Of a DNA stretch of 64,000 nucleotides, positions 4,386 through 40,178 are shown piece after piece. Below the pieces are notes generated by a model. That model saw only the letters and a list, made by a program, of their open reading frames with translations. It did not search any database and was not told where the DNA came from. The position numbers and the translations under genes are program-made. Position 1 is the first letter of the stretch. Each line of letters opens with the position of its first letter. Source of the stretch: Mustelus asterias (Eukaryota); contig NC_135830.1 of assembly GCF_964213995.1 (NCBI RefSeq), forward strand, positions 11,780,001 through 11,844,000, given 5' to 3'.

Positions 4386-5296
4386 TTATTTTCTCGGAAT
4401 AGTTAGTTTACTAATTCGGTTCAGTGGACATTGGAGAGCATTTTTCAACTCTTCTCTGAATTTCTTCTGAATGGCTGCGTAAATAAAGGTGTTGGTGCAG
4501 GAACTAAGAAGCTGCAGCATGTTTCCAGATTCCTGGAGAATAAATTTGGGATCACTGAAGCTTTTAATGTTATAATCGTTTGTGATTCGCACAGTCAAGA
4601 ACTGTATAACAAATGTCATCCACAACAGGATGAAACTGCCAGAGATTGTGAAGAGTAAAATGATGGACTTTCTCCGGCTCTCCATCTCGGGGTCAGTCTG
4701 ATTCTTTCCGCCATTGTCTGTACGAAGTCTCCTCCTGGCTCTACTGGCTGTTAGAATATGCCTGACGGTCAGAGCGTTGAACAGGAGAATTAGAAGGAAC
4801 GGAGCACACGGGGTCAATATACAATTAAACCAGTCATATGCTGTCCATAGCAGTGAAGTATACCGGATATCCTTCAGTCTGCAATACCACGGCACATTGT
4901 CAACCATGTTAATAGGCTCGTGAATAAAGTACCAGGGGATATTGGTTAAAAAGCCCAGGGCACAGACTGTTCCTATCACAACAGCCGCAGTTTTCTCGGT
5001 GCAGTATTTTATTTTCAACTTCTGGCAGCATATTGCCACAAAGCGATCAAAGGTAAACGTGACTGTTAACCAGACAGAACTCACTCTGGCTGCGTAAGTT
5101 AGGACTGTGCTCACACTACACAGCGGGGTGATGGACAAGAAGCTGCCTGGAAAATAAATGGCACTGATGCGATTTAATATCACAGCGGTGATAATGACCA
5201 GTAGATCTGTCACATTCATGGAGATAAGGTATCGAGTGATACATTTCGAAAGACCACACTTTCCTCTTGACAGGATCACAATCGCCACTAAATTAG
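4386..5296 (-). CDS. GPR139/GPR142-like class A GPCR no.1, exon 2 (end of TM1 to C-terminus); spliced protein 326 aa
   Basis: Open frame with hydrophobic helices, TM2 Asp, TFDRFVAIC, NTFIY and helix-8 KFREEL; acceptor gcag|CT at 5297-5298; joins exon 1 in frame (70+911=981 nt). Confidence 0.88.
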
Positions 5297-5759
5297 CTGC
5301 ATTAAACAGAAGGAGAATTAACTTACATGCAAAAACCACAATAATATCATCACATTGACCGAAATGCATGGACTCTTATTTTCTGCATCTGAAGCGATTT
5401 TCTGGGTCTGAAGAAAAAACAGCTGATTTAATAATATGAAGATGGACGTTAGATGGGGGCAGACATCACGGATGGAAGAAGTATATTCTTAATCATCAAA
5501 ATGGATTATCTGTTTATCAAGCATTGACTTCTCAATTACCATTACATTTTACCGTGCACGGTAATGAATTAATAAAGTTTCTATTTCCGAAATCAACCAA
5601 TTAGTGGAGTCTGATGACATTTCAACGGGTATGGAAAATATTGGTATTGATGTTTCCATGAATGGAGTAATTCGCTTACGAGGGTTGATTGGAGAAACGT
5701 GTCGAAATTTTTGTCAAATGTCAAAGATTCATTCGGGTTCTTCTGAGAGACGATCGGGA

Positions 5760-8652
5760 GAAAACTGCTCACGACACAGGAACTGCAAGCAAGGCAACAA
5801 ATCCTCCATCCACACACCGACCAGAGTGAAGAACCTCATTGGACAAAACCATACCCTTAACACCGCAAACCATTCTCACCGTCTCCCAGGCTCGAAAAAA
5901 ACAGACACTCCAGGAAGCGTGGAAAACGTGTAAGTGAGAGTGAAACAACGCGGCACCAAGGCCCCCATCCCCAGCTTATTCCTTACAAATCTCCAGTCTC
6001 TGGAAAACAAGCTAGACGAACTTAGAACGAGCCTCACTTTCCAAAGGGAACTGAGGGATTGCTGTGTACTCTGTTTCACAGAGACTCTTGCTTCACCGGA
6101 CAGTGCCCTAAAACCAGTGGGCTTCTCAATCCATCGAATGGACCGTACAGCGGCCTTAGCCATGGCTAGGGGTGGTGGGCCTGCTTCTTTATCAACACCT
6201 TGTGGTGCCTAGACGTAGCGACACCGCAACTTTCTGCTCCCCAGACCTGGAATATCTCATGCTAAAATGCCACCCCTACTCCCTTCCGCGGGGGTTCACC
6301 GCCGTTATCCTGATGGGAGTTCACCTTCCACCCAATGCACACGTGAAGATTACGCCAGACGAAATATACATCACGACGATTAGCCTTGAGACGAGGCTTT
6401 GTTCATCGTTGCTGTGGACTTCAATCAGGCCAAACTCAAGAGCATACTACCAAGATACCACCAACACGTTTCCTATTCCAACAGAGGCCCAAACATCCTA
6501 AACCACTGCTGCACAAATATCAAACATGCTCTATCGTTGCCCAGACTTTTGCCAATCAAACCACAGGACAGTACTCTTGCTCCGGCTTACTAGCAAGAAC
6601 TGAAGCGGGAGAATCCATCAAAGAAAGTCGTGCAATGTTAGTCTGAGGTTAGTATTTAAAAACTCTGTAACCAGCCTGAACGAGTACGCCACGACAGGAA
6701 CTGACATCATTAATAAGTGTGTAGAAGGCAATGTGCCAACGAAGCAAATCGTGTGTTTCCAACCGGAAACAATGGATGAACAGGGATATCCACTGCTTGC
6801 TGAAGTCCAGGTCTGAGGCATTCAAGTCAAGCGACAGTGACCTATACAAGAAAGCCAGATACGATCTAAAGAGATACATCAAAGATGCCAAAGGACAGTA
6901 CCGGACCAAGCTAGAGTCCTAGGATAGCCACACGGAGCCCCGCTTGTCTGCAAGACATAACAGGCTATAAGATGAAGGCATGTTCAATCGCCGGCTCCAA
7001 CGCACCTCTCCCTGATGATCTCAATACATTCTATGCCGGTTTTGAGCAAGAGGTCAGCCAGCACATGGCCTCTACCCTGGAAGCACAGGATGAACCTACA
7101 TCTGGGGTCACCATTGCAGATGTCAGAGCAGCTTTCTTGAAGGTCAACCCACTGAAAGCGACTGGCTCAGATGGGGTACCCGGACGAGCATTCAGAACCT
7201 GCGAGGATCAGCTGGCGGGGGTATTCACAGACATCTTCAACCTCTCTTTACAACAATCTGAGATCCCTATCTACTTCAATAAGACGACCATCATCCCGGT
7301 ACCGAAGAAAAACCAAGCAGTGTGCTTTAATGACTATCAGCCAGTGGCTCTGACAAATATCATCATGAAGTTCTTCGAAAGATTAGTCATGGCCTGAATC
7401 AATTCCAGCCTCCCGCACGACCTGGATCTACCACAATTTGCCTACCACCGCAACAGATCCACAGCAGACGCCGTTTTCCTGGCCCTGCACTCAACCTTAG
7501 AACACCTAGATAATAAGGACACCTTGTCAGATTCCTATTTATTGACTACAGCTCAGCCTTCAACACTATTATTCCCACGAAACTCATCTCCAAACTCCGT
7601 GGCCTGTGCCTCGGCACCTCCCTCTGCGACTGGATCCTGAACTTCCTCACTCATAGTCCTCAATCAGTAAGTTAAGGCAACAACACCTCCTCCACGATAA
7701 TCCTCAACCCCCGTGCCCCACAAGACTGTGTTCTCAGCCCCCTACTATAATCCTTATACACCTATGACTGTGTGGCCAAATTCCGCTCCATGTCGATTTT
7801 CAATTTTGCTGATGACACCACCTAGTGGGTCGGATCTCAAACAATGACGAGTACAGGAATCTGCTGAACTGGTGCGGCAAAAATAATCTCTCCCTCACTG
7901 TCAACAAAACGAAGGAGATTGCCATCAACATCAGGAAGCGTAAAGGAGAACATGCCCCTGTCTACATCAATGGGGCCGAAGTAGAAAGGGTCGGGAGTTT
8001 CAAGTTTTTAGGTCTCCAGATCACAAACAATCTGTCCTGGTAACCGCCCCCCCCCCCGCCCCCCAATGGACGGAACTGTAGTTGAGAAAGCCCACCAACT
8101 TTCTCAGAAGACGAATGAAATTTGGCATGTCAGCTACGACTCTCACCAATTTTTACAGATGCACCATAGAAAGCATTATTTCTGGTTGTATCACAGCTTG
8201 GTATGGCTCCTGCTCTCCCCAAGATTGCAAGGAACTGCAAAAGTTTGTAAATGTTGCCCAATCCATCACGCAAACCAGCCTCCCATCCATTGACTCTGTC
8301 TACACTTCCCACTGCCCCGGCAAGGCAACCAGCATAATTAAGGACCCCATGCACCTCGGACATTCTCTCTTCCACCTTCTTCCTTCAGGAGATAGATACA
8401 AAAGTGTGAGGTCACGTACCAACCGACTCAAAAACAGCTTCTTCCCTGCTGCTCTCAGATTGTTGAATGGACTTACCTTGCATTAAGTTGATATTTGTCT
8501 ACACCATAGCCATGACTCCAACACTACATTTTGTACTCTCTCGTTTCCTTCTCTATGAACGATATGTTTTGTCTGTATAGCACGCAAGAAGCAATACTTT
8601 TCACTGTATGTTAATACAGGGGACAATAATAAATCAAATCAAATCAAATCAA
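5760..8652 (+). mobile_element. Rex1/Babar-like non-LTR retrotransposon (APE + RT), inactivated, inside GPCR1 intron
   Basis: QSLENKLDELR, LCFTET, VDFNQA (APE); KATGSDGVPG, IIPVPKK, FADDTT (RT); tail AATAAATCAAATCAAATC; stops and frameshifts. Confidence 0.88.
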
Positions 8653-9814
8653 AACCTCAGAGGAAGGATTAAACCGAAGAGGGGATTGATTTAATGTTAT
8701 ATATAAGGGAAGAAATAGTGACGTCAGGACAAACTTTTGGCGCATGCAAATTTGCTGCATGAGAATGAGGTTGTGACAGTATTCGTAGCGACATTCAACA
8801 GGGCATTGACTTATCATCTGAATAGGAAACGTGTGTGGTGACAGGGAAACGAAGGGGGAAACTGGAGAAACTGAACTGATGTTGCCGAGCAAACGTCTAT
8901 GCTGCGACAATTCGAATATTCCATGCACTGAAAGATTAGAAACTTGAACAGAAAGCACAGATGATATAGCAATAATTGGAATTAAAACATAGAGAAACAT
9001 TTATTATATCGTATATCGGCACAACATGGATGATATCATACCTGTCTATCATGATGAGCATTTTTCACAGTTTAGCCCACTTAATTTAACTGTTCAATAA
9101 TCTTTCGAATTTTATTTTTCCATCTAGACTGATTAGGATGTAACTTAAGTTTATCGGGACATTTTGATGTGTGACCTTTTACATCGCATCTTCTCAGCCA
9201 ATTATAGTTCGGATTAATCATTGAAGTGCCAACAGAATCCTAGCAAGAAATGACCAGTCGTATCCTGTGAGTTCGAATGGTTTCTCTTATCTTTGTATTC
9301 TGTTATGTAGCTTAGCCAATTTCACAGAATGGGACAATTATTACAGCTCAGCACGATGCCATTTGAGCAATTGTGATTGCATCGTTTCTCTGAATGCACG
9401 TCTCACCGAAGGTCATCCACCGTCCTATCCTCCTAACATTCCACGTTCATCCATCCAGATAAATATGCAGTTAATTTCTGAATTGTTCAAAAGGATCTCT
9501 CTCAACCACAATATCATGCAGTGTATCACAAACACTAGCCACTCGCAGCGTACAACCCATTTCCTTAAATGAATTTTGCTGATTTCATGAATTACTTTCA
9601 TACTGTTCCCTTTAGTGTACGATGTTTTCACTGGTGGAAACAGCCTCTCCACATCCAGTAAGTCCAGAACTCTTCTAACATTGATATTTAGTCCCAAACA
9701 TTTACATGCTTTTACGTCTATTCCAGGATCTTCACCGTGAAGTAACGTGGCCCTGTGGAGTATCTAATCAAATGTTTTGTGAACTCTGTTACAAAAAACA
9801 CCGATAGATATTAA

Positions 9815-9945
9815 GAGCACATTACTGCGGCTGCTGGAATCTGAAATCAGAAAGAGAAAATGCTGGAAAATTTCAGCAGGTCTGGCAGCATCTGTAGGAG
9901 AGTAAAGAGCTGAAGTTTCGAGTTCAGAAGGCCCTTTGTCAAACT
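9815..9945 (-). mobile_element. Short Penelope-derived/SINE-like repeat (GATGCTGCCAGACCTGCTGA family); further copies near 15740-15840, 17150-17260, 20260-20395, 20530-20650, 21670-21870, 59650-59730, 62565-62690
   Basis: Shared core CAGATGCTGCCAGACCTGCTGAG...TTCCAGCA preceded by a degenerate CTGANGA...GAAACGT motif. Confidence 0.65.
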
Positions 9946-10432
9946 TCTTTGTCAAAGCAAATTCTACACCGGTAGATATTCCTATGTCCAGTACTTTGAT
10001 CACTGCTTTATTAAGTCAAATCTGGTTCGTCTCGGATTTAGAAAACCATATCCTGAGTTATTTCACCACTTCTGCCCCTTGCCTTGCGCATCCCGACCAG
10101 AAAAATCTGTTTGTTGCCCACATATCTTTGAACCCCTTTACTAATTTTAATCAAAGCGGCTAACTAGTTATTTAATCTTATATACGGAATGTACAACATA
10201 TGAGATTTATGAAACCGTTCCTGAGAATTTACTCTCGAAGAATTGGTATCGTTATAGCAAATCTACATTGCACCATTTTTGAATGAAAAGTCTATCCTTC
10301 GTGAGGTGACATGGAAGAAAATGAGTATATTGCTCCTGGTATTCAAACGTCGGATAACTTCAACCCTTTTGTTTCATGGTATCCTTGAGACGCATTCAAT
10401 TTGACAACGAATAACTTATTTTGAAGCATTAC

Positions 10433-10502
10433 CTGGGACTGCAATGACAGCAAGTGTAGTGTAGTAAATAGCATATGGTAGTCCAGTAGGTGGAGCATGC
10501 AT
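10433..10502 (-). CDS. GPCR no.1 exon 1 (MHAPPTGLPYAIYYTTLAVIAVP + 1 nt)
   Basis: 70 nt from ATG to G|gtaat donor, phase 1; homologous to 40109-40178; splices in frame to give VP-A-NLVAI. Confidence 0.85.
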
Positions 10503-11039
10503 CTTCTGTGAGGGGCGGCGATGTCTTTCTGAGAATGATTTGTGCTCTGCTCGACTTTCAAAGAACATTCTATTATACCTCATGTTATCCCCCGTAGACG
10601 CAATTAGGTCATATTACCAATAATGTTGCTTGCACTCACTGAACAAACACCGTTAATTAAACAATTAGAATGGCGGATTGTAGCCTATGAGCAAGCACTT
10701 TGATATGGTCTGTTTTTAGCTTCGTTGTTAATATCATAGATTGAACACAATTACAAATGTGCGATTTTAAATTAAAATGTATATCTTTTAACAAAGGTGA
10801 CCTGCTGACCTTCCCGCTTAAATGGACCTTCAATTCAACAATAACAATTTTTGTTGCTAACCTATATCCTAATTAGGACAGTAACAATTCCATCGATATC
10901 AATGTTCTGGAATTGAATAGCGGTATAAAAACAAAAGGAGGCCTATCGACATGAAACTTGTACAAATGACATGAAAATCAAAGGAACCTCAAACTAGTCG
11001 ATCCTTCTATAACTATGACCGCAGGCTCCAGAACGTAGA

Positions 11040-11800
11040 GTCATAATATCATGCAGTGCAGAAGAGACCCTTCGGCACATCGATTCCGCACCAACAAAAA
11101 TACACTAAATGTAAACTAATCCCCCTTTACAGCATTTGGCCCATAGTCTTGAATGCTGTGGCATTTCATGTGCTCGTCAAAAAAAACTTTGTTGGATTCC
11201 CACCTCTACAATCCTCCCAGGCAGTGCATTCCAGACTTCTAACTCTCTCTGTGAAAAATGTTTCCTTAAAAGCCCTCTAAACCTCCTGCTCCTCACCTGA
11301 AAATTATGCCCCTTTGCTACTCATCCTTCAACGATGTCCTCCCCATCCTGTCCATAAACCTCTTAACCTTATCCAATCCAATCAGGTACCCTTTCTTTCT
11401 CCTCTGTTCTAAATATATTAATCCTATCCAGCCTCTCTCCATATCTAAAACTATTCATCTCAGGCGCCATCCTTGCGAATATTCTCTTCAGCCTCGCCAA
11501 TGAAATCACATGCTTCCTATAATTGGGCGACAAGAACTGCACCCAGTACTTCCAGCTTTTGCCTATCCAAAGTTTCATACAATTCCAACATAAACTCCCT
11601 GCCCACGAGGGATAGTGAAGTTCTGTATGCCTTCTTAACTATCATATTACTCTGTTCTGCCGCTTTCAAGGATCAGTGGACAAACATCCTAAGATAATTC
11701 TGCTCCTCTGAACTTCATTTTGTCCTTCCATCCATTGCATTCTCCCTTGTCATTTTACTCCTTCCTAAGTGTGTCATTCAACACTTCACAGGGCTATGCC
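11040..11800 (-). mobile_element. CR1 LINE 3' fragment, degenerate
   Basis: YWVQFLSPNYRKHVISLARLKRIFARM, relic of the CR1 RT C-terminus. Confidence 0.8.
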
Positions 11801-11834
11801 CCTGATCGGCCGCATCTGAGCAACTCACAGAAAG

Positions 11835-12250
11835 ATAGGAACATAGGAATTATGCGCAAATGTCGGTAAATTCAGCCCTGCTATCATGCTCCCCCATGCA
11901 ATCAGATCATTGTTGATCGATTCTTGGTCTCAAATGCATCACCCCAAATGCTCCCAATATCCCTCTTTCTCTTTTGATACTGGAAATTTATCTGTCTCAC
12001 TCTCGAAACCATTCAACGATTCAGACTCCACCGTGCTGTGGGACAACGAGTTCCACACATCCATCACCGTTTGCGAGAAGTAGTTCCTCCTGAGCTCAGA
12101 TTTTAATCTACAACCTCTCAACCTATATATGTGACCTCTTTTTCTGGATTGCCGCAGAAGAGAAAGCAATTGCTCTACATTTACCTCATCAATCCATTTT
12201 ACAATTTGATATATCCCCAACAGAATCTGTCATCTCTATCTTCCTGCAAT
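11835..12250 (-). mobile_element. CR1 3' fragment (related copy at 17540-17950)
   Basis: RGHIYRL...RRNYFSQTVMDVWNSL. Confidence 0.8.
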
Positions 12251-12387
12251 CTAGAAAATGTTCGCTAATAGCCACACCAGCATTTTTTTCTGTCACTCTT
12301 AAACTTACTTATCATCCGCCCACCTTCTCATCTATATCGTTTCGGAAAAATAGTCTATTTTTGGCATGAGGGAGCCATATACATCAG

Positions 12388-12720
12388 ATCATAAGAAATA
12401 GGAGCAGGAGTAGGCCATCTAGCGCCTCGAGCCTGCCCCGCCATTCAATAAGATCATGACTGATCTGAAGTGAATCAGTTCCACTTACCCGCCTGATCCC
12501 CATAACCCTTAATTCACTTACCGATCAGAAATCCATCTATCCGTAACGTAAAAATATTCAACGAGGTACCCCCGCCACTTCAGTGGGCAGAGAATTCCAG
12601 AGATTCACCACTCTCTGAGAGAAGAAGTTCCTCCCCAACTCTATCCGAAACTGAACCCCCTTTATTTTGAGGCTGTGCCCTCTAGTTCTGGTTTCCTTTC
12701 TAAGTGGAAAGAATCTCACC
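12388..12720 (-). mobile_element. CR1 3' fragment
   Basis: TRGHSLKI...NFFSQRVVNLWNSLP; CATAAGAAATAGG tail. Confidence 0.85.
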
Positions 12721-13321
12721 ACTTCAATAGTGAAGTGTACCTGTTCCATTCGGTATCTACCCACTCTGGCTTTTTCTTTCTTTCTGTCGATAGATCTGCC
12801 TCAGTCCTTCCCTCTCTCAGTCTAACTATCCATTTCCCTCTTTTGTTTTTGTTCCTCCTATTCTCTCCCTGTCTGGGTGGAATCAAGTTTAATTGAATTG
12901 ATTCCTGAAATGAGGCGGTTGTTGAGCTGGGGTTGATTTTAATGGCGGAGGAGACTCAATGGGACATGTGATCTAATGCATCTCCAATGATTCTGTTCAC
13001 TGCCAATACTAGTTCCGACAGCAATGACTTCTGTTGGTGTCGTTGATAGGAAGTTTAAGGCATTAAATTTAGGATAGCGACATTTGTGGAGGACTGTGAT
13101 CAAATTCTCCCAATGTCAGATTTTTATTTAAATTACTTTAAACGTTACGAACTTTGATCAAACATGTGATTATTAAAATTGAATGCAGTAGAATGTGTCA
13201 TCATTCATTTTGATTAGAGAAACCAGCAGAGAGAATGTAAAGTGAGCAACTGACGGGCTTGTGGAACGAGTTTAGTTGCTCCACAAGTAAACCGGATCTG
13301 CTTCAAATCATGCATCGCAAA

Positions 13322-13395
13322 GTTTCTGTAGTGCAGTCGTTACCATGTTTGCCTCACATGCGTACAGGTCCCCGGGTCAAGACCGAGCAAAAACA
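13322..13395 (+). pseudogene. tRNA-Val(CAC) pseudogene
   Basis: GTTTCTGTAGTGCAGTCGTTACCATGTTTGCCTCACATGCG...GGTCCCCGGGTCAAGACCG; boxes damaged. Confidence 0.75.
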
Positions 13396-14561
13396 TTTCG
13401 AAATGGGTTAATTTCAAATGATTCAGATTTATTCTTGCTTTTCACGAAACATTGATTGAACGGTTGAGGTTTTGTGGCATTTAAAATGGGAATCACTCAG
13501 TAAAGAGATTAAAAGCGAAGGTCTGTGATAGAGAGCATAACAGGATGGGTTAACTGACACAAGGAATGATGGACAAGGGCAACATTGGGTGGTTCCCAAT
13601 ATTTTTATACTTTGCTGCTTTTATGGGTGAACTCCAGCTCTCCATTCCTCCGGCAATTTCACCGCTCAAACTGAGACTTTCTCCATCCCGCTTTGTTAAT
13701 CCCACAGTTACTTCTTTCTGAATGAAAACTGCTTGCAATCAGTCGAAGTCAAATAGTTTTGTGCTTCATTCAGCGAGAAGTTTTCTTATCATTTAGCCCG
13801 ATATTTTTATCCAGAAATGAGTGAAATTTGTGCCAATGCAAACGGTTAATTCTGACCCATTATCAACCAGATTTTACCTAGTGCCACCATCTCCATCGTC
13901 AGCGCTTTCCATCCTATCTCTGTCCTTCACTATCTGTGTTTCTTTTTGACCTTTTGTCCATGTGACATTTCCAACTCGGAAGCAAAACTACAAACCTCAC
14001 TCCAACGTTTCTGGCAGAGCTGCTTTGGACCAGGAAGTATTACAGTTTGTTTATCAAAAACATTAAGTCTTAGTGCATCGAAGCCAGCCTGTGACCCCGA
14101 AAGCACCGAACACTAGCCACGAGACCAGCAGGATGTAATTTTCCTGATTCTCGCAGTCACGGATTACAGGAATGTGCATAGTGCCAATTAAACACAGTCA
14201 CCCACTCCTTCCAGTCTGTTAAGATATGAAATTGTTCATATTTTCACACTAGCTTCCAGTATGACCAAAGCAGAGCTGTGACAAGCTGATGTTGTTCAGA
14301 ATTTTTACCACACTCAGGTTTATAACACTTCGATGCCAACATTCCTCGAACGTGGTGAGCTACAGTGAAATTTAATGCAGTTGAAGATAGCATATTGAAG
14401 ATAGCTTACTCATTTTTTTCAGGAGGAACCAGCAAGGGTAAAGTAAATATGAATTGCTGTGGGTTTTTGATGGGATTGTGCATTGGGGTTGATATTTCAC
14501 TCTGCTGTTCAAATTGGCACAGGTAGTGAACGACCATTTTCAGCCTGTAGCCGTGTGTTGC

Positions 14562-14626
14562 GGTCCGTGGTGTAATGGTGAGTACTCTGGACCCTGAATC
14601 CAGCAATCCGAGTTCAAAACTCGGCT
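14562..14626 (+). pseudogene. tRNA-Gln(CTG) pseudogene, 3' acceptor strand lost
   Basis: GGTGTAATGGTGAGTACTCTGGACCCTGAATCCAGCAATCCGAGTTCAAAACTCGG. Confidence 0.75.
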
Positions 14627-14719
14627 TTAATTTGCAAATGCTGATGGTTGATTTGCTGAAGGGCATTTTGTTTAAATTTCTCACAAAGTACGAATCGAGA
14701 GGACAATTTGTCAGCCAGT

Positions 14720-15530
14720 TCAACTGCTATTACAATGCACATTGCTGAGCTTCTGGTGCCAGGTGCCTGCAACATCAGTGTTTTTCATCTTTTCGCTGCT
14801 CTTTAACTCCTCTGTTGAAAAAAAGAAACAGTTGGTGTCACACAATAACAATTCGACTGGAGTCTGGCNNNNNNNNNNNNNNNNNNNNNNNNNNNNNNNN
14901 NNNNNNNNNNNNNNNNNNNNNNNNNNNNNNNNNNNNNNNNNNNNNNNNNNNNNNNNNNNNNNNNNNNNNNNNNNNNNNNNNNNNNNNNNNNNNNNNNNNN
15001 NNNNNNCAGAGTGCTGTTGATTCAATGGGTGGCGGTTCACACTCTGGCCTCTCGCCTCCTAACTTTTGTTTAAATTGGGACAGGTAACAGAGTGAACTAC
15101 ACCTCCAGGTGGACACAAAGCCCACTGTCGCTTCCCCGACTCTCAGCGCTTTGTATTCTTGAGCAATCGTTCTCTGGGGCTGATGCAATGACGCCAAGAG
15201 AGTCATTCTCTGCAACAACTGCAACTTGCACATTGCTGAGTCTCTGGCGAAAGATGCCTGCATCAGCAATGTTTTTTTTCATCTTTCGCTGCTCTTTAAA
15301 TCATCTGTTGAAAGAAAGGAGCAGTTGGTATCACACAACAACAACAATTCGACTGGAGATTGGCAATTATTGAGCAAGTGTGTGTGTGTGTGTTTTGGGA
15401 GAAAGGCCGAGTGTTATAGGTCAGAGTGCTATCATTTCCATGTCGTAACGCTTCGCAGTTTGGACTCTCGCCGTCCCACCTCTTGTTTAAATTGGGACAG
15501 ATGAGTGAGTGAATGGTACAAGTAGGTGGA
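14720..15530. repeat. Local tandem duplication spanning an assembly gap
   Basis: 14720-14868 recurs at 15215-15365; 15007-15100 recurs at 15421-15530. Confidence 0.7.
14869..15006. other. Assembly gap (N run)
   Basis: Run of N. Confidence 1.
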
Positions 15531-16115
15531 TCCCCAACAAAATATATACTGAATTCGTAACATCATTTGAAATGATTAATCCTCTTTATGTTTCATTTCA
15601 TGTCAAACAGGGTGACACATCCTTGTATCTTATTATTTAAAACCTCAGCCCTTTGACGATGCAAACAGGTCAAGTTCAGTCAAAGAAAACTACTCCACAT
15701 TGAACGAGAAAAAAAGACACTAAAGGTACTGCAAACCCCACCTCAAAACAGAAAATATTGGAAACAGCAGGTCAAACAGCGTCTGTGGTGAGGGAAACAG
15801 AATGAATGGTTCGGGTCGCTGACGTTTTATCCAAACTGGAAGAAGTTAGATGTTTAATGGTTTACGAGCAAATACAGAGTGAGGGAAAATAGAGGGCGAG
15901 AACCCTATTTATGATCTTGTGATAGGATGTAAGGCTGGAGTGATTGAATGACAATGAGGATGATTATTGTTCCCACTGACATAATCTTCCAGATCTTGCT
16001 TTAAACCTTGCGCAAAATGAGAAGAAATTTGCTCTCTGAATTAAGGACTAAACTCTTCGACTGCCCGGGAAGCAGGGATAGCTTTAATTCAGAAAGCAGT
16101 GACGGTGAGATTAGT

Positions 16116-16365
16116 GGGGCGGCACGGTGGGACGGTGGTTTGCACTGCTGCCTCACAGGGACAGGGACCCGAGTTAGATTCCCTGTTTGGGTCACTATCT
16201 GTGTGAAGTATGCACGTTCTTCCCGTGGCTGCATGGGTTTTCTCCCACAGTCGGAAAGATGTGCTGGTTAGGTGCACTGACCCGAGTGGGCGCTGGAGTG
16301 TGGCGGGTCGGTGAATTTCATCATAAATTGCAAAGTTAGCCTTACTTGTGACTAACAAAGCAAAG
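16116..16365 (+). mobile_element. HE1-related tRNA-derived SINE with a different 3' tail
   Basis: HE1-like head and core; tail CCTTACTTGTGACTAACAAA is not CR1-like. Confidence 0.75.
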
Positions 16366-16427
16366 CGGGATAGAGAAAGACTCCGTTTGAACGGTGACAC
16401 TGCCAAGACTTCACCAACGAAAGCAGC

Positions 16428-16500
16428 AAACACAGCGTGGGGCTCGAACCCACGACCCTGAGATTGAGAGTTTCATACTCCACCAACTGACCGCGAGGGA
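16428..16500 (-). pseudogene. tRNA-Lys(CTT)-derived pseudogene (loop now reads CTC)
   Basis: GTGGGGCTCGAACCCACGACCCTGAGATTGAGAGTTTCATACTC is the reverse complement of a tRNA-Lys body. Confidence 0.8.
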
Positions 16501-17009
16501 CACATATCAGAACTGGCACTTAATATTCTAAAATGCGTGGAGACAAATATGGCTTTGCCATCTGGTGTCTCAGCTTGTTCTGATTACAATGTTTACAATT
16601 AATCAACCTACAGAATGCTTGAGGTAAGAAGGCACTCCTCTCTATCATCAATAACTTCATTTACATCTTCCACTTCTTAGCTTCACCTCCTTTCAAACAT
16701 TGCAAACTCCTCCTACATCTTTCACCTGAACATTTTTGATCTAAATACTCAAAACAGGTGGGGGAAACAGCGTCACAGTATGTCCGAAGTCAAACTGTCA
16801 CCCCATTTTCAGACGTTTCAATCTGGTTAAGTGAATGTCCGCAAGGATTGTCACCTTTTGAAAATGCCTGGATTCTCTGTGAGTGTGTTGTGCTCACAGC
16901 AGCATTGCCGTGTGCGCTCAGGTTCTCAAATCATGTCCCATGTGAGCCAATTCCGCCATGTCACGGGAATGAAACTAACAAAATCCACGTCTTACCCATT
17001 ACAAAACAA

Positions 17010-17097
17010 GGGCGTGTTCAAGATTTGAACCCGGGACCTCTTGAAAGCTTTTGGACTTTAAACACCCAAAGTGAGAACACCCCTAGACCAACAAGCT
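17010..17097 (-). pseudogene. tRNA-Pro(TGG) relic with a 19-nt intron-like insert at position 37/38
   Basis: Pro body TTGGTCTAGGGG...CTCAC TT TGG G [17064-17046] T TCAAG AGGTCCCGGGTTCAAATC. Confidence 0.75.
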
Positions 17098-17539
17098 ATC
17101 GGTACAAAAGCGCGTCAACTAAATATATATTTTATTGCCATCCAAAAGCGGATCAGACATCTGCACTGAAATGTGGCAACGTTGGAAAAACTCAGGAAGT
17201 CAGACAGCGTCTGTCCATAGGGAAACAAAGATAAATATTCACCTCCAAGACCTTTCATTAACATTGGGAATGTTTAGAGATGTTGGGAGTTCAAAACAAA
17301 TGAAATCCAGCAGGGAGGAAACATAACAACATCTGGTAGGGTGGAAGCCTGGAGAAAATGAATGAGGGAAACAGAGAATCACAGAATGATTATACCACAG
17401 GGTGAGACGATTACAAAGTTACTTGCACGACCGACGTGCGTTGTGGGTGAAGGGGAACCAGAGGACGTACTGTGCATATATTTCAACAGAACCACAGTGA
17501 TGAGGTTGGTGGGCTTGAAAGTTGATCGTTACGCGAAGA

Positions 17540-18469: not shown

Positions 18470-19260
18470 ACCGTTTACATTGACACTGAATTATGAAACT
18501 TTTTCCCGCACTCTTCATTGAAAAGCATTTGGAAATATTTCTGTCCGGTTTCGAACCGTTGGAAACGAAAGTGATAATTGCACTGGAGTGTTTGTTATAT
18601 GTTGTCATTGGCTGAACACATCACTGGTGTTGAAACAGAAGGCGCCATTTTGCAGGAGAAAGCTGTTTGTGGCGAAAGTGGCGTGAAAATTAAAGTAACA
18701 AAAGCAGCGTGGATAATTTAAATTCTAAAACACGCTGCTGGTCTGGTGATTAGAGTTTGACTTTTTCGCTGCTGTTTAGATTACTGGTCTGGAATTGAAG
18801 ATTTATTGCCACCATCCAAACTCTGAAAACAAATATGAGTTATTGCCTGGATGAACATATAAAACATAATATGATCCTTAAGTGCAAACTCTGTGCAAAT
18901 TCAACAGGAGGTTCCGTTGTCATTTCTGGCAGGAAATTGGGAAGAGACGAGCTGATGGACAGTTTAAATGATGCCGGCCGTTCACTGCAGCTCATTGTGT
19001 TTCTGACATGAGGTGATTTCTGTTTGTTGCGCAGTTTAGGTTTACCTGAATCAGAGAAGGAGCAGGCTCATGCTTCCTGATGGCCTTTCCAAGTTTCATT
19101 GCTTTTATTGAATTTCAGTAACATTATCATTAAATAACATGACCGCGATATATTCCGAAGTGGTAGCGTGGCCGAGCGGTCTAAGGCGCTGGATAAAGGC
19201 TCCAGTTTCTGCGGAGGCGTGGGTTCGAATCCCACCGCTGCCAAAATAAATTTGCGTTTT
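18470..19260 (+). repeat. ~0.8-kb module (tRNA-Val relic, spacer, tRNA-Leu); inverted copies at ~58400-59200 and ~62800-63730
   Basis: Shared blocks such as TTTCGAACCGTTGGAA, CAGAAGGCGCCATTTTGC, AAAAGCAGCGTGGATAA, TTCACTGCAGCTCATT. Confidence 0.75.
19162..19243 (+). tRNA. tRNA-Leu(AAG), near-intact (U33 replaced by A)
   Basis: 82 nt GGTAGCGTGGCCGAGCGGTCTAAGGCGCTGGATAAAGGCTCCAG...GGTTCGAATCCCACCGCTGCCA; A and B boxes intact. Confidence 0.85.
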
Positions 19261-19550: not shown

Positions 19551-20774
19551 TATAAATAACAGGATTACAAACAGTGAGACTGTATTCCCTGCCCAGGAAT
19601 TAAGGTGATGGACTTGAATTTTCGAAGTGAAGTTCAAAACCTATCATGTACACGTCCCATCATTCCTCGTTCTAACCAGATATTTTCAGAATTAACCTGG
19701 CTCTTGTGATAACCACCGAACTACAGAAACACGGTGTGATGACCTCGGGGCAAGCAGATCCGGTTTACTGAAGAAACAACTAGACTGGCTCCAGAAGCCC
19801 ATCTTTTGCCCACAGCAATTGATATTACATTGTCTCTGCTGATTTTTCCTGTCAAAATGAATAATGATACTTCCTACTGCATTAAAGTTTCGTAATAACA
19901 TGTTCGAGAAAAAGTATTCATGACGTGTAAAGCAAATCAACTGAACACCTGAAATTTGCGGCATTTGATCACTTTCCCCCACAAATGCTGCTGCCTCGAA
20001 TTCAATGCCTCAGAACACTCATCAACGCTTTTAACAGAGGTGATCCCTATCAGATCTGGTGCTGCAGGGAACGGAATTAGTGGAGTAGGGTTGGCTCACA
20101 TGTCCCATGGAGTCTCCTCCGGAATTTAAGGAGAACATGACGAATCCCAGGAATCAACATCAATTTCCAAACGTATCCTGATGGCCCTTCATTCCCTTAG
20201 ATTCCAAAAATATCTCCCCCTGAAACTCCAATATTCTCATTAACTGAGGATCTACAGACCTCTGGTGAAGGGTCACCCAGACTCGAATCGTTGGCTCTAT
20301 TCTCTCTCCATAGATGCTGCCAGACCTGCTGAGATGTTCCAGCATTGTCTATTTTTGTTTCAGATTCCAGCATCCGCAGTATTTTGCTTTTACCGCCACC
20401 ATTTACATTCCCTTTGATTTATTTTCCATCACAACTTTGTCAACTCTTCCCCACGGCTCCCACCCTCACACAACATATCCCACACTTAAAGTATCAATCT
20501 TGTCCTCTTTTCCTGTCTTCGGCTTTGATGACTGACCATACAGATTTGAAATGTTGGCTCTATTCTCTCTCCAGAGATGCCGTCATGCCTGTTGAGATTT
20601 TCGAGCATTTTAAGTTTTTCTTTTAAGTTCCAGAATCTGCAGTAATTGGCTGTTGACTGAAGCAGTCATTCGTGTTCGATCTAAACATGAGGTTGTTTTT
20701 TCCCGACAAACCTTTGTCGAGTATTTGAAAAACGCTGCAAGGTATCGGTCAGATTAAATTGCCAATTTGTATAT

Positions 20775-20846
20775 TCCCTGGTGGTCTAGTGGTTAGTATT
20801 TGGCGCTTTCACCGCCGCGGCCCGGGTTCGATTCCCGGTCATGGAA
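20775..20846 (+). tRNA. tRNA-Glu(TTC), near-intact with a few stem mismatches
   Basis: 72 nt TCCCTGGTGGTCTAGTGGTTAGTATTTGGCGCTTTCACCGCCGCGGCCCGGGTTCGATTCCCGGTCATGGAA. Confidence 0.85.
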
Positions 20847-21371
20847 TGTAGATTTTATAGCTGCCGACCAGCACATGATTTCGGAGGGGCTGAAATTACC
20901 TCCTGATCGATAACAGGAGTGATCATTGTGCCAGTTTGAACTCCCTGGAGAAACAAAATAAACCCATTTGCACAATCCCGTCAATTGTCCCCGGCAACTT
21001 TTCATTACATTCCCCTTGCTGCTTCCTCCTGTCAAAATGAATAATAATGCATCCTACCCCACTAAATTTCACTGTAGCTCACCACATTCACAGATCATTC
21101 GTAACCTCTGCCTCTTCTATAGCTTCTTGTGGGAAATCTGCTGAACAACATTACCTGATCACAGCTCTGCTGTGATATCAGAGATTTGTATCTCATTGTT
21201 CATCATTACGGTCTCCATTGCTTTATTCCAGGTAACTGTCGCTACAGACATAGTCACACAGTCATTCTACTTTCTGCAGCAAATGATATACTCTTCCTTT
21301 GCTTTCAGATACTTTCACCTCCAGAAACTGATTACACGCTCAGTAAAATGTTCTGTTTAGTTGACAGTTTA

Positions 21372-22659: not shown

Positions 22660-25527
22660 TAGGATTGAGATGTGTTTACTTTAATGCCAGGGGTATAGTG
22701 AATAAAGGGGTTGAGCTCAGAGCGTGGATCGATGCCAGGAACTATGATGTGGTGGCCATTACGTAGACTTGGATGTCTCAGGGACAGGACTGGATACTCC
22801 AGGTGCCGGGATTCAGAGGTTTCAGGAAGGACAGAGAGGGAGGCAAGAGAGGGGGTGGAGTGGCACTGCTGATCAGGGATAGTGTCACAGCTGTAGAGAA
22901 GGGGTATGCTGTGGAGGGATTGTCCACCGAGTCTCTGTGGGTGGAAGTTCGGAGTGGGAAGCGGCCGGTCACGTTGCTGGGAGTTTTCTATAGGCCGCCC
23001 AATAGTAACAGGGAGTTGGAGGAGCAGATAGGGAAACAGATCCTGGAGAAATGCAGTCATAGCAGAGTTGTTGTAATGGGAGACTTTAATTTCCCAAACA
23101 TAGATTGAAATATCCCGAGGGTAAGGGGATTGGATGGGGAAGAGTTCGTTAGATGTGTTCAGGTGGGTTTACTGACACAGCATGTGGACAAGCCTACAAG
23201 AGGAGAGGCTGTACTTGATCTGATACTGACCAATGAACCTGGACAGGTGTCAGATCTCTCAGTGGGAGAGCATCTTGGGGATAGCGATCATAACTCGATC
23301 TCCTTTCGGCTTGCATTGGAAAAAAGGAGGATCAGGCAAGCTAGGAAAGTGTTTATATGGAATAAGGGGAAATATGAAAACATTAGACAGCAAATTAGAG
23401 GAGTAAATTGGAAGGAGGTTTTCTCGGGGAAATGTACTGAAGAGAGGTGGCAGTTTTTCAAGGAATGTCTGTCTAGCGTTCTACAGGACAACGTTCCGAG
23501 CAGACAGGGAGGTGTTGGTCGGTTAGAGGAACCGTGGTGCACGAAAATTGTGCGGGACCCAGTCGAGAAGAAAAGGAAAGCGTACAAAAGGCTCAGAGAG
23601 CTTGGCGAAGATAGGGATTTAGAAGAGTATATGGCTTGTAGGAAGGGACTAAAGAAAGAAATTAGGAGAGCCAGAAGGGGTCGCGAGAAGGCCCTGGCAG
23701 GAAGGATTAAGGAGAACCCTAAGGCGTTCTATAAATATGTGAAGAGTAAAAGGAAGAGACGTGACGGAATAGGGCCTATAAAAGGTGAAGGCGGGAAAGA
23801 CTGTACGGAAACAGTAGAAATGGCAGAGGTGCTCAATGAGTATTTTGTCTCGGTTTTCACAGAGCACAAGGACTTGGGTGGATGTACTGCGGGCGTGCGT
23901 AAAACTGAAAGGAGTGAGTATGTCGACTTTAAGAAAGAGGTGTGCAGGAATCTTTGAATGGCATCAAGATAGATAAGTCGCTGGGTCCGGATGGGATGTA
24001 CCCCTGGTTACTGTGCGAGGCGAGGGAGGAGATTTCAGAGCCTCTGGCGATGATCTTTGCATCGTCGATGGAGATGGGAGAGGTGCCGGAGGACTGGAGG
24101 ATTGCGGATGTGGTCCCTATTTTCAAGAAGGGGAATAGGGATAGCCCAGGTAATTACCGACCGGTGAGACTAACCTCAGTGGTTGGTAAACTGATGGGGA
24201 AGATCCTGAGGGACAGGATATATGAGCATTTAGAGAGGTTTAGTATGCTCAAGAATACTCAGCATGGCTTTGTCAAGGGCAGAAGTGCCTTACGAGCCTG
24301 GTGGAGTTCTTCGAAAATGTGACTAAACACATTGACGAAGGGAAGGCGGTAGATGTGGTTTATATGGATTTTAGCAAGGCGTTCAATAAGGTCCCCCATG
24401 CAAGGCTTCTAGAGAAAGTGAGAGGGCATGGGTCCAAGGGGCTGCGGCCCAGTGGATCCAGAACTGGCTTGCCCAAAGGAGGCAGAGAGTGGGTATAGAT
24501 GGGAATTTTTCTAAATGGAGGTCGGTCACCAGTGGTGTGCCGCAGGGATCTGTTCTGGGACCCTTGCTGTTGATCATTTTCATAAATGACCTGGATGAGG
24601 AAACGTAGGGATGGGTTGGTAAGTTTGCCGACGACACGAAGGTCGGTGGGGTTGTGGATAGTCTGGAGGGATGTCTGAAGTTACAGAGGGACATAGATAG
24701 GATGCAAGACTGGGCGGAGAAGTGGCAGATGGACTTCAACCCAGATAAATGCATCGTGGTCCATTTTGGTAGGACAAATGGGATGAAGGAGTACAATATA
24801 AAGGGAAAGACTCTTAGTATGATAGAGGATCAGAAGGACCTTGGGGTCCGGGTCCATAGGATTCTAAAATCGGCCCCGCAGGTGGAGGAGGGGGTTAACA
24901 AGGCGTATGGTGTGGTGGCCTTTATCAATCGAGGGATTGAGTTTAGGAGTCCGGGGATAATGATGCAGCTATATCAGACCCTCGTCAGACCCCACTTGGA
25001 GTACTGTGCTCAGTTATGGTCGCCTCACTGTAGGAAGGATGTGGAAAAGATTGAAAGGGTGCAGAGGAGATTTACAAGGATGTTGCCTGGATTGAGTGGC
25101 ATGCCTTATGAGGATAGGCTGAGGGAGCTCGGTCTTTTCTCCTTGGAGAGACGAAGGATGAGAGGAGACCTAATAGAGGTGTATACGATGTTGAGAGGCA
25201 TAGATCGGGTGGACTCTCAGAGGCTTTTTCCCAGGGTGGAAATGTCTGCTACGAGAGGACACAGGTTTAAGGTGCTGGGGGGTAGGTACAGGGGAGATGT
25301 TAGGGGTAAGTTTTTCACACAGAGGGTGGTGGGCGAGTGGAATCGGTTGCCGTCAGTGGTGGTGGAGGTGAACTCAATAGGGTATTTTAAGAGACTCCTG
25401 GATGAGTACATGGAGCTTAATAGGATGGAGGGTTATAGGTAGGTGTAGAAGGTAGGAATGTGTTCGGCACAACTTGTGGGCCGAAGGGCCTGTTTGTGCT
25501 GTAGTTTTTCTATGTTTCTATGTTTCT
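22660..25527 (+). mobile_element. CR1 LINE, most of ORF2 (APE endonuclease + RT), with stops and frameshifts
   Basis: YFNAR, GGGVALL, GVFYRPP, MGDFNFP, SDHN, KSLGPDG, NYRPV, DFSKAF, KFADDTK; (TTCTATGT)n tail. Confidence 0.95.
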
Positions 25528-25609
25528 ATTATGAAGAGAAGAGAGGCTGCATACTGTTGTCTTGATTATGAAGATGATACTTGGGTTCATTTTCATTTCT
25601 GTTTCACTG

Positions 25610-37552: not shown

Positions 37553-38454
37553 CTACTGTTTAAAGACACGAGTGAGCATGGTGAATGGACAGATCAGCAA
37601 TTTCCTCAGCTCCTCTCTGAACTTGTTCTGGGAGATTGCATAGATGAAGACGTTGTTGCAGGAACTTACTAACTGGAGCATGTTAGTTGTCTCTTGAAGG
37701 ATATAGTCTGGATCATTGAAATCCAGGCTGGTGAGGTAGCCCGCACCTGCGAGCCGTGCGTAGAGGAAATGTCCGACATAGGTGGCCCACAGGAGAAGAA
37801 AGCTAAGGGAAATGGTGAAGAGCAGGACAATGGATCTCCTGCGGTTTTCCATCTCCGGGTCTCCGTGGTCCTCTGTGCCTCGGAGTCTCCTGCGAGCTCT
37901 GCTGGCCACTAATATGTGTCTCATAGTCAGGCTGTTGAGTAGCAGGATGAGGAGGAATGGAAGAAAGGGGGTTAAGATGTGGTCCAGCCAGTCGTAGGCC
38001 AGCCAGGTGGGAGATGTGTAGAAGGTGATCTTGATGTCGCAGAACCAGGGCACCCCATCTAGAATGTACAAGGGCTGGTAGACGAAGTAGAAAGGGACGT
38101 TTTTCACACAGCTCAGGGCACAGACTATTCCTAAAATCAGCAATGCTGTTTTCTCGGTGCAGTATCGGGTCTTCAGGCTCTGACAGCAGATGGCGATGAG
38201 ACGGTCGATGGTGAAAGCCACTGTCAGCCAAACTGACCCATCCCGTGTGGCAAAGACCAGCAAGGAACTAACTCTACACGCAGGGGTGGTGGACAGGACA
38301 CTGTTAGAAAAGTAGATGCGGCCGATGCGGTTGAGGATGCCGGCAGTAATGATGATCAGGAAATCGCTCACCGCTATCGCCACCAGGTAAAATGTGATGC
38401 ACCGGGAGATTCCGCACCGTCCTCGGCATAGGACTATAATCGCCCACACATTGG
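37553..38454 (-). CDS. GPR139/GPR142-like class A GPCR no.2, exon 2; spliced protein 323 aa
   Basis: Open frame; AIAVSD, TIDRLIAIC, NVFIY, KFREEL; acceptor tctctcacag|CC at 38455-38456; 70+902=972 nt in frame. Confidence 0.88.
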
Positions 38455-38529
38455 CTGTGAGAGATAAAAACACGACAGGTGTCACCGCGCAAATTCGAAA
38501 TACCAGTTATTGACTCATCCAATCAGTTA

Positions 38530-39060
38530 CCGAATCTGTCCTGATCTAACCCTTTGTCACCTCCAGACTCCTGCAACTGGTATTCGTTAGATATCCAATG
38601 CTGAACAAAACATGTGTCATTGTAGACAGCATTGAAATCTGAGCCCGCCACAAACTCTGTTTTCTGGTCAGTTTGCGGTTAGTTTCCCAAATTATCTAAT
38701 TTCAAGCAATTGCTGCTGATGCTGTTATTCAAGACAGGCCCAGTGCATCGATCAAGTGCATGCTCGCTGTTCTACATTGGTTCCCAGTCGAGCAATGTCT
38801 CGTTTTTAATATTCTCATCCTTCTCATCTTTAAATCCCTCCCTAGTCCCGTCATTCTAGGTGCCTGTAACTTCTTGCTGCCAACTGAGTTCACAGTTTAC
38901 CTCCAACTTTGTCCCGTTGTGTGTCCGTATTGTTTAACCCGCCATTGACAATAGTTACGCCTCGAGATGTCGACGCGCTAATCTCTTGAACTTCCCTCTC
39001 AGCAGCTGTTTTTCGCCTTTCTTCTGAAGGAGTTCCTTGTAACCTATCTCTTTGACCTAC
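38530..39060 (+). mobile_element. L2-like LINE 3' relic in GPCR2 intron
   Basis: TTTGTCACCTCCAGACT...LAVLHWFPVEQCLVFNILIL, resembling the L2 LxxLHWLPVxxRIxFK motif. Confidence 0.55.
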
Positions 39061-39282
39061 TTAGGCCATTGGGTTTTAAATGTCTTTGTTAAAGTCCTCA
39101 TCATACGTATTGCAGTGGCTGAAGAAACAAGAGCAACTTTACCTTTTCCACTGGCAACGAGAGATGAGCAATATATATTGACCTTGCCATGGACACCAAC
39201 AAAAATATCTAAAACAATATGTACGAAACGTACCAGCACAAGAAAAACATGCATAGCAGATTTAAAATCTTGCTTTTCCATT

Positions 39283-39475
39283 CATAGAATCCTACAGTGC
39301 AGAAGGAGGCCATTCGGCCCATCGAAACTGCTTTGACAACTTTCCCACCCAGGCGCTCACCACATGACCTCATGCATTTACGCTTGTGAGTTTCCCAAAC
39401 ACTAAGGGGCAATTTAGCGTGGCCAATCCATCTTATCTGCACATCTTTGGACTGTGGGAGGAAACCGGAGCATCC
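39283..39475 (-). mobile_element. HE1 SINE, 5'-truncated
   Basis: CATAGAATCCTACAGTGCAGAAGGAGGCC...CACATCTTTGGACTGTGGGAGGAAACCGGAGCA. Confidence 0.8.
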
Positions 39476-40108
39476 CCTTGAAACCTTTCCTTAAATAATT
39501 CCTATAACCGCATTAACATTGAGGGCCGCCCAGTAATAAATCACGGTATTGTAATTATTAAATCGTTGCAGACGTCGCGCTGTACTTTCTTGTAATCACT
39601 GTAAGATTTGTTTTAGTATTCAATTTCATCTAATTCAAAGAATGCAATGTAATAGTTATTTCGCCGATGCTGTAATAAGATCATTGCATGGAAATGCATG
39701 CTACTTCGCTGTTATGCGGTATTATTCCAGAATGGCATTCAGAACACCAGCGCATTTTACTACATTTAATGAAACTCAAAGTCGACAATATAACAGATGC
39801 AAAGCCATCAATTATAGTCCAAATTAGGCAACCCAATAAAATGCATCTCAATCTTTGTGTGCAGCACAGTAATTTGAATAATGTCTTGGAATATTCCATG
39901 ATCCAATCAAATAAATCATTGAATTTACCATTGCATGGCATAATATCAAACAAGGCAGGCACAGACATATGTTGGTACCCGTTTGAAGTCCCGTAAACTC
40001 ATCATTGCTGAGTCGTAGATACGATGAGCCCGTTCCAGAAAGAGAAGAAACCCAATTTATTGTTCTTTTTAAACAACGTTAACAACTTATTTGTGATCCA
40101 TCACTTAC

Positions 40109-40178
40109 CAGGAGCACCAATACCAGCAAGAACGGGATAACAAATGGCAAAGAAGAGACCTTTCGCTGGTCCGTGCAT
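40109..40178 (-). CDS. GPCR no.2 exon 1 (MHGPAKGLFFAICYPVLAGIGAP + 1 nt)
   Basis: 70 nt from ATG to G|gtaagt consensus donor, phase 1; same size as exon 1 of GPCR1. Confidence 0.88.

Follow-up and report, generated by a model that had tools for sequence, protein, structure and literature searches.

Two receptor genes stand on either side of an immunoglobulin M (IgM) sequence in the genome of the shark Mustelus asterias, in a stretch of 64,000 nucleotides (nt) of contig NC_135830.1 (positions 11,780,001 to 11,844,000; hereafter the window), which is C71:11.78-11.84 Mb of the 3.68-Gb genome assembly. What are these genes, here called gene 1 and gene 2, and how do they relate to IgM? A first-pass annotation described them as GPR139-like and placed them in an expanded orphan family that may duplicate together with the immunoglobulin heavy chain (IgH) loci. 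Both belong to a very large family of class A G protein-coupled receptors (GPCRs) of elasmobranchs, with some two thousand copies or more in the assembly. We suggest that this family is likely a chemosensory repertoire of olfactory-type neurons, and that the IgM is a broken passenger. Taken as a whole, this reading of the sequence is evenly poised between right and wrong. The evidence for it is the size and intactness of the family, its separate ancestry, purifying selection, a ligand pocket that varies while the cytoplasmic face is conserved, a promoter layout common to the copies, and the broken condition of the IgM. The family itself is real and large, an expanded GPCR repertoire of chemosensory type, and apparently undescribed.

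Two intact class A receptor genes

Both genes lie on the minus strand and have two exons: a 70-nt exon 1, a phase-1 intron with GT/AG ends within the codon preceding the Asn of transmembrane helix 1 (TM1), and an open exon 2 (Table 1). The products have 326 (gene 1) and 323 (gene 2) amino acids. This gene model is the one first annotated, and the proteins, then judged by eye to be roughly half identical, agree at 185 of 328 aligned positions (56%). Both are class A (rhodopsin-like) GPCRs, with a Pfam 7tm_1 match (E 1e-21 and 9e-20), seven TM helices followed by helix 8, and a DRY-like motif. Because of these E-values, and because 123 of the 131 scored genome matches to gene 2 are free of internal stops, we do not consider the reading of the two genes to be a product of chance.

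The AlphaFold model of paralogue P0003, which is 95% identical to gene 2 (84-row alignment), has a mean pLDDT of 84.7 and contains seven long helices and helix 8. Its helix 1 starts at residue 8, in keeping with the annotated N-terminus of about eight residues lacking an N-glycosylation sequon. Neither gene has an N-terminal sequon; gene 1 has two sequons in all, at residues 51 and 222, and gene 2 has none anywhere. A Foldseek search with this model gives TM-scores of about 0.7 to peptide and chemokine receptors, with GPR139 at rank 31 and not first, and the method does not resolve the family. The nearest database proteins may be annotations of the same assembly or of a near relative and are not counted as independent. 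Four contigs that align on gene 2 span the intron too; no joint at the predicted splice site is present among those shown, and they are uninformative on transcription.

A clade separate from GPR139 and GPR142

Could these genes be ordinary GPR139 or GPR142 orthologues? This is what the database names say, since NCBI automatically calls family proteins 'probable GPR139'. The best sequence match among solved structures (PDB) is human GPR139, and the intron position is the same. Yet that match reaches 33.8 bits only, against 533.8 bits to human GPR139 for the true orthologue at C23:73.89 Mb, one of two further loci from the motif search. The other, at C12:99.0 Mb, is 56% identical to the C23 gene and is read as GPR142. 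Genes 1 and 2 are only 21-25% identical to these two genes, fall in a separate clade and have lost R6x51 and E3x32. Thus we count the orthologue reading as refuted and give it next to no credence.

We computed a quick tree of 81 rows and a bootstrap tree of 47 rows (LG+G4, midpoint root). In the bootstrap tree the 30 elasmobranch rows form one group (91/88), which is sister to a single-copy gene of amphibians and sturgeon (100/99), and GPR139 with GPR142 is placed outside both groups (100/99). The receptors are thus distinct from the true GPR139 and GPR142, as first proposed, and both orthologues sit elsewhere in the genome (C23 and C12). Next in the tree are two further relatives: a conserved gene that fishes, amphibians, turtles and squamates have in single copy, and an isolated gene at C5:28.7 Mb.

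The comparison with GPR139 and GPR142, which are class A receptors activated by L-Trp and L-Phe, shows what is shared and what is not. The intron before the TM1 Asn, W6x48 and Y4x61 are kept. In contrast, E3x32, H5x43 and R6x51 are kept in neither window gene, the TM6 proline is absent from both, and the shark family has a conserved cysteine pair between TM3 and extracellular loop 2 that GPR139 lacks. There are thousands of shark-family loci versus one.

The sister gene of amphibians and sturgeon (P0218, P0430, P0446), also automatically named 'probable GPR139', resembles the shark family in its short N-terminus. It differs in having about one cluster per species (21 of 25 matches, comprising 20 amphibian clusters and the sturgeon, with the other four from elasmobranchs), and it is 32-34% identical to the window genes. 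No study of it was found in the open-licence PMC and bioRxiv literature. The fish-to-reptile gene (coelacanth P0231; locus L046 of the shark genome, C25:56.72 Mb) likewise has a short N-terminus and the same intron; unlike the expanded family, it is present as one copy in the shark genome (at 60%) and has a conserved pocket with R6x51. This conserved orphan is possibly one of the 'GPR210' subtypes of PMC6504862, which names extra fish and coelacanth subtypes GPR210A/B and whose text, in the part available, does not contain the word 'shark'. No bird or mammal is among the 120 matches listed for it. Two database models are named TMEM183A isoforms, which suggests adjacency.

The TM1 intron is ancestral, because an AG stands two bases before the TM1 Asn codon in 54 of 54 loci (47 distinct places), GPR139 and GPR142 included. 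The equivalent intron position of GPR139, stated in the first-pass annotation, is therefore confirmed in this genome. Similarly, the short N-terminus is old and not a shark novelty, since it is also present in relatives from coelacanth, salamander and amphioxus. The closest neighbours of gene 1 in the trees are skate genes (81% identity), and gene 2 pairs with a gene of a stingray; the two genes thus separated before sharks and rays did. A recent tandem origin of the two was rejected, as dS between them is saturated (dN 0.33) and they belong to separate shark-ray subfamilies. The family probably descends from one ancestral gene, by tandem and segmental duplication.

Two single loci on C5 may be mentioned here. 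L047 (C5:28.70 Mb) is a lone intact divergent gene of the GPR139 clade, with the same intron and a short N-terminus, outside the expanded family; its candidacy as orthologue of the salamander gene was not borne out by the bootstrap tree. L081 (C5:142.9 Mb) is a deep-branching member in a tandem array, close to catshark P0202, and may mark the ancestral site of expansion.

A family of a thousand or more intact genes

The first-pass annotation proposed a lineage-expanded repertoire, which proves to be an understatement. A degenerate TM3 motif has 1,909 exact matches in the genome and a motif in intracellular loop 1 (ICL1) has 1,612, with no match to either reversed-motif control; this is not a gene of one to a few copies. 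In the C4-C8 stretch, which both motif lists cover, 40 places are common to lists of 99 and 75, which puts the union near 2,700. Capture-recapture from this overlap gives 3,600-4,000, a rough figure that assumes independence and that C4-C8 is typical. Protein searches scored 131 of 5,752 and 130 of 5,928 candidates, and all those scored have at least 53% identity.

Most copies are intact. An open exon 2 with its acceptor is present in 31 of 40 loci sampled at regular intervals from the first 100 listed motif matches, and in 26 of 30 loci from a genome-wide rare-codon subset (30 of 32 taken), or 57 of 70 overall, so about a fifth are broken. For 55 of 71 intact loci an exon 1 could be located no more than about 8.5 kb away, and in 49 of the 55 it is 70 nt long; none of 57 exon 1 peptides contains a sequon. 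Chromosome-scale contigs hold 20 of the 32 loci of the rare-codon subset. Haplotype-like copies occur among the unplaced contigs. Contig C131 repeats C71:11.78-11.88 Mb at a constant offset with 99-100% protein identity and is likely an uncollapsed haplotype, which inflates gene counts. From the TM3 motif alone we obtain about 970 intact placed copies (700-1,200); allowing for haplotype copies and missed copies, we estimate 1,000-2,000 intact genes. Arrays are present on C4, C5, C8, C15, C16, C20, C71, C72, C73 and C75. In the protein database 582 clusters pass E 1e-10, and the 120 listed come from sharks, skates and rays where named.

Cartilaginous fishes have been described as having a relative paucity of GPCRs (PMC8455134, in the part available). 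A thousand or more intact receptors under the name 'probable GPR139' clash with this picture, whatever they sense. We found no paper on the family or on its Ig neighbourhood in the open-licence PMC and bioRxiv literature. A word search of passages in shark genome papers gave no mention of it, though supplementary tables of expanded families may list the genes.

Selection and the ligand pocket

Over 28 disjoint paralogue pairs at 76-97% identity, the ratio of nonsynonymous to synonymous substitution rates (dN/dS), measured by pairwise counting, is 0.24. The purifying selection that the first-pass annotation assumed is thus real. Pocket columns were taken from mutagenesis and modelling of GPR139 (PMC5430874, as far as its text was available), with 3x36, 3x37 and 6x52 added. 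Among 84 sequences under 90% identity, these columns have an entropy of 2.30 bits versus 1.38 at other TM columns, a value reached by none of 2,000 random column sets. The order is reversed in the single-copy C25 gene (116 orthologues), with 0.60 bits in the pocket versus 0.92 elsewhere. The cytoplasmic face is conserved across the family, including CGLS in ICL1, DRF, ICC in ICL2, a basic stretch from ICL3 to TM6, and helix 8.

The Trp/Phe pocket of GPR139 and GPR142 consists of E3x32, F3x33, H5x43, W6x48, R6x51 and N7x38 (PMC5430874, same part). At these six positions gene 1 has T/Y/N/W/F/N and gene 2 has V/F/D/W/Y/N, by alignment-based numbering that may be off by one, and neither gene carries the Trp/Phe set. 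R6x51, which GPR139, GPR142 and the C25 gene keep, is not among the five commonest residues of the family at that column. Positions 3x37, 5x40, 5x43 and 7x35, whose numbering may again be off by one, often carry acidic residues. These give a hint of cationic ligands, which could be amines, basic amino acids or short peptides.

A shared promoter layout

In 46 non-redundant upstream regions from ten contigs, conserved elements stand in a fixed order relative to the ATG: a forkhead-like block near -143, a block near -130, then between -105 and -90 a homeodomain site with an O/E-like site after it, and a TATA element near -75. The forkhead-like block is present in 33 of the 46 promoters (shuffles 7.9), the -130 block in 11 (0.6), the homeodomain site in 38 (22), and TATA in 29 (7.8). 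An O/E-like site with at most one mismatch is found in 11 promoters, compared with 1.4 in shuffles and 3 of 43 regions far upstream. All three main blocks occur in both gene 1 and gene 2. The O/E consensus was fixed before the scan. Several other patterns were defined after inspecting the sequences, and the held-out test below is therefore weightier. Since the null of the de novo k-mer scan is crude, we rely on positional concentration and on shuffles of named motifs. A strict three-part pattern has two genome-wide matches and is uninformative.

A cluster of about 40 class C (V2R-type) genes at C3:3.8-10.4 Mb has TATA and O/E-like sites close to the ATG. Exon 1 was found for 25 of 29 class C genes of this cluster, giving 12 non-redundant promoters; the presumed V2R identity of these genes comes from clustering and domain match. 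An O/E-like site within two mismatches is present in 11 of the 12 (shuffles 5.6) and within one mismatch in three (0.7), a homeodomain site in eight (4.8) and TATA in nine (1.5). Scored with the matrix of the receptor family, these promoters reach 7.5, above all 100 shuffles (maximum 7.0). Neither the V1R-type genes nor the single-copy relatives were usable as promoter controls; in several of them something resembling an acceptor directly precedes the ATG.

In the mouse, the promoters of odorant receptor (OR) genes show enrichment of O/E, homeodomain and TATA elements (PMC3247239), and the OR enhancers work with Lhx2 and Ebf sites side by side (PMC5608512), according to the parts of these papers available. 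A layout that is partly common to shark V2R-type genes and mouse OR promoters is suggestive of an olfactory-type promoter, not proof.

The IgM remnant and its duplicated cassette

The first-pass annotation had the receptors bracket an IgM locus. What lies between them is a broken 3' remnant and not a functional cluster, in which V-D-D-J segments with recombination signal sequences, constant exons CH1-CH4 and in-frame TM exons would be found. Only CH3, a frameshifted CH4, TM1 and TM2 are present; neither the window nor the preceding 20 kb yielded an IgM V, CH1 or CH2. The reference and positive control was an intact cluster at C71:5.09-5.14 Mb. The annotated distance is correct: 6.4 kb separate TM2 from the stop of gene 2, in tail-to-tail orientation.

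Gene 2 and the end of IgM form part of a cassette of about 14 kb with colinear copies at C71 11.867-11.887 Mb and 4.647-4.665 Mb (75-90% identity). In both copies IgM is reduced to CH4 and TM, in one of them with a stop, and a more distant cassette on C127 has CH1-CH4 with stops. Across the fetched stretch of the four cassettes there is no V match; the IgM of three is disrupted by stops or a frameshift, and that of the fourth consists of nothing but CH4 and TM. Because IgM has decayed while receptor exon 2 is intact in each cassette, the IgM fragment rides with the receptor. Receptor duplications on the shark IgM chromosome can thus take Ig fragments along as passengers and so spread them.

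Does this extend to the family at large? A search with the last IgM constant exon produced 408 candidates, of which 150 were scored and 112 were matches; every match is on C71 or on one of the small contigs numbered C87 and higher. After dropping six at 42-44% identity and one split piece, 105 rows were used, 26 of them on C71. The six, at C71:0.75, 0.98 and 2.92 Mb and on C185, are Ig constant exons 42-44% identical to IgM CH4 and are probably IgW or IgNAR. The list of receptors on C71, at least 56, is incomplete. Five of 14 gene 2-like copies on C71 lie within 30 kb of IgM (1.1 expected, p 0.004; 1.6 expected within the Ig span, p 0.015), and these five include the window's own gene and copies of one cassette. 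Of the other known C71 members 3 of 42 do so (3.4 expected), which is no enrichment. In the chromosome-placed part of the genome-wide subset, 3 of 20 are on C71 and 17 of 20 on chromosomes without an IgM match. The proposed co-duplication with IgH is therefore weakly supported: it holds only for the cassette, in which a decaying IgM fragment accompanies the gene 2 subfamily, and does not extend to the other C71 members or to the copies on chromosomes without an IgM match. A functional link to IgH as a general rule was rejected on the same grounds. The association with IgM is local and passive.

What the receptors may sense

A large clustered family with pseudogenes and a variable pocket is a feature of olfactory-type repertoires, and the shark family has it. 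With the OR, TAAR, V1R/ORA and V2R repertoires it has in common the clustered birth-and-death arrays, a compact coding region and a variable pocket; the promoter layout of homeodomain, O/E-like and TATA elements may be a further likeness, with O/E-like sites that are degenerate and differently spaced. It differs in the coding intron within TM1 and the extra forkhead-like block. It is a member of none of these families by Pfam, where only 7tm_1 is above the cut-off, and the V1R-type and class C genes of the genome are separate loci. In the mechanism we propose, each gene would be active in some of the sensory neurons, under a short TATA promoter in which homeodomain and O/E (EBF)-like sites stand next to each other, and the mini-exon would be spliced to exon 2. 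With some eight residues outside, ligands would bind in the pocket between TM3, TM5, TM6 and TM7. Different copies may detect different water-soluble ligands, and the G protein through which they signal would be common to all. Some of the duplications on the IgM chromosome took along 3' pieces of IgM; these decayed, and the receptor remained intact.

A more specific proposal is that this is a fifth, independently evolved olfactory family of sharks and rays, with 1,000-2,000 intact genes per genome from one GPR139-related ancestor, an OR-like homeodomain/EBF promoter and the role of main odorant repertoire. We hold this tentatively, as slightly more doubtful than not. Cartilaginous fishes are credited with about 30-35 V2Rs and 5-8 genes in each other olfactory family (PMC6368271; PMC11979771, in the parts available). 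If olfactory, the receptors would explain large olfactory organs with few known receptors and offer an independent case of receptor gene choice. As a fifth family they would be among the largest vertebrate odorant repertoires, overturning the view of shark smell as a matter of a few dozen V2Rs.

Several observations weigh against an olfactory role. No perfect O/E site is found in the 46 family promoters, and the forkhead-like block, the strongest of the family, is not enriched in V2R-type promoters (2 of 12; shuffles 2.7). The promoters were compared only with shuffles, far-upstream DNA and the V2R-type set. Factors of the EBF, forkhead and homeodomain types have roles in B cells and in other neurons as well. 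Recent pairs show no positive selection at the pocket (dN/dS 0.25, p 0.14 versus random TM columns). The gap between the homeodomain and O/E sites is 2 nt in the shark family (0 in the other register); it is 1 nt in the single mouse Lhx2/Ebf composite probe, where spacing matters (PMC5608512, supplement 7), and the word 'forkhead' does not occur in the available text of PMC3247239. In addition, expression outside the nose is reported for OR genes and some V2R genes of the catshark (PMC11979771, in the part available), so repertoire-like evolution does not fix the organ.

One alternative is a chemosensory repertoire outside the nose, in solitary chemosensory cells, in skin, gill or gut epithelium or in somatosensory neurons, similar to MRGPRs or bitter receptors. 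The same size, pocket and selection data would fit it, as would a forkhead-like block that V2R-type promoters do not share, and sharks are reported to lack MAS1-related receptors (PMC8455134, same part). The homeodomain, O/E-like and TATA layout, partly common to V2R-type genes and to mouse OR promoters, speaks for the nose, and we regard the alternative as possible though rather unlikely. Less likely again is an immune repertoire, expressed in leukocytes or B cells and linked in function to the IgH clusters. EBF1 and FOXO are B-cell factors, the 20-Mb contig C71 carries at least 56 members together with the 26 IgM last-constant exons, and the gene 2 subfamily does lie near IgM. The copies near IgM, however, include the window's gene and copies of one cassette, the remaining C71 members are at the expected number, and the IgM of the four cassettes is without V and mostly disrupted. 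Most chromosome-placed copies are on C5, C8, C15, C16, C20, C73 and C75, where IgM has no match, and a signal of positive selection at the pocket is absent. Finally, the genes could be receptors for endogenous peptides or metabolites, as in the case of GPR139 and its relatives among invertebrates. Duplication-prone DNA would then account for most of the amplification, and each copy would add little in the way of new function. Descent from within the GPR139 clade, a fold closest to peptide and chemokine receptors and the broken fifth of the copies agree with this. The low dN/dS, subfamilies kept since before the shark-ray split and a pocket more variable than the rest of the TM bundle argue against it, and we consider it improbable. 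The preferred reading is still the repertoire of olfactory-type neurons.

Other features of the window

The features are collected in Table 1. The first-pass annotation described the remaining coding sequences as broken, and those checked are indeed fragments of long interspersed nuclear elements (LINEs) and transposases, and the IgM remnant.

Table 1. Features of the window, in positions counted from its first nucleotide
Feature	Positions	Strand	Evidence or remark
Gene 1 exon 2 (TM1 second half to stop)	4386..5296	-	Open frame, AG acceptor; 7tm_1
Gene 1 phase-1 intron, 5,136 nt	5297..10432	-	LINE fragments inside
Gene 1 exon 1, 70 nt (N-terminus and first half of TM1)	10433..10502	-	ATG to GT donor; skate database proteins with same N-terminus
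Gene 1 predicted promoter	10572..10649	-	Family-wide positional conservation; factor names inferred
Gene 1 TATA-like element	10572..10577	-	
Gene 1 homeodomain and degenerate O/E-like block	10590..10606	-	
Gene 1 forkhead-like block	10640..10649	-	
Broken LINE directly upstream of IgM CH3	22662..25525	+	Where CH2 would lie
IgM CH3 exon remnant	25610..25909	+	C1-set; 54% to CH3 of intact cluster; acceptor apparently CTG not CAG
Duplicated cassette: IgM CH4-TM remnant and gene 2 with promoter	26008..40380	.	blastn 75-90% over colinear blocks
IgM CH4 with secretory tail	26745..27135	+	Frameshifted by 1-nt deletion near 26830
IgM TM1 exon	30896..31020	+	81% to intact cluster
IgM TM2 exon	31161..31169	+	Sequence
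66-bp tandem repeat, 8.8 copies	32546..33123	.	Within duplicated cassette
Gene 2 exon 2	37553..38454	-	Open frame, AG acceptor; 7tm_1
Gene 2 phase-1 intron, 1,654 nt	38455..40108	-	
Gene 2 exon 1, 70 nt	40109..40178	-	Database proteins with same N-terminus
Gene 2 predicted promoter	40249..40324	-	Family-wide positional conservation; factor names inferred
Gene 2 TATA-like element	40249..40255	-	
Gene 2 homeodomain and O/E-like block	40267..40283	-	
Gene 2 forkhead-like block	40315..40324	-	

Between gene 1 and the IgM remnant, ARAGORN predicts a tRNA-Leu(AAG) at 19161-19244 (+) and a tRNA-Glu(TTC) at 20774-20847 (+), and decayed tRNA-like stretches seem to lie near these two genes. Beyond gene 2, a frame with a CENP-B N-terminal domain at 44258-44632 (+) is a fragment of a pogo/Tigger-like transposase. 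It sits in a region of repeated pieces at 41.8-56.9 kb, which also matches C127.

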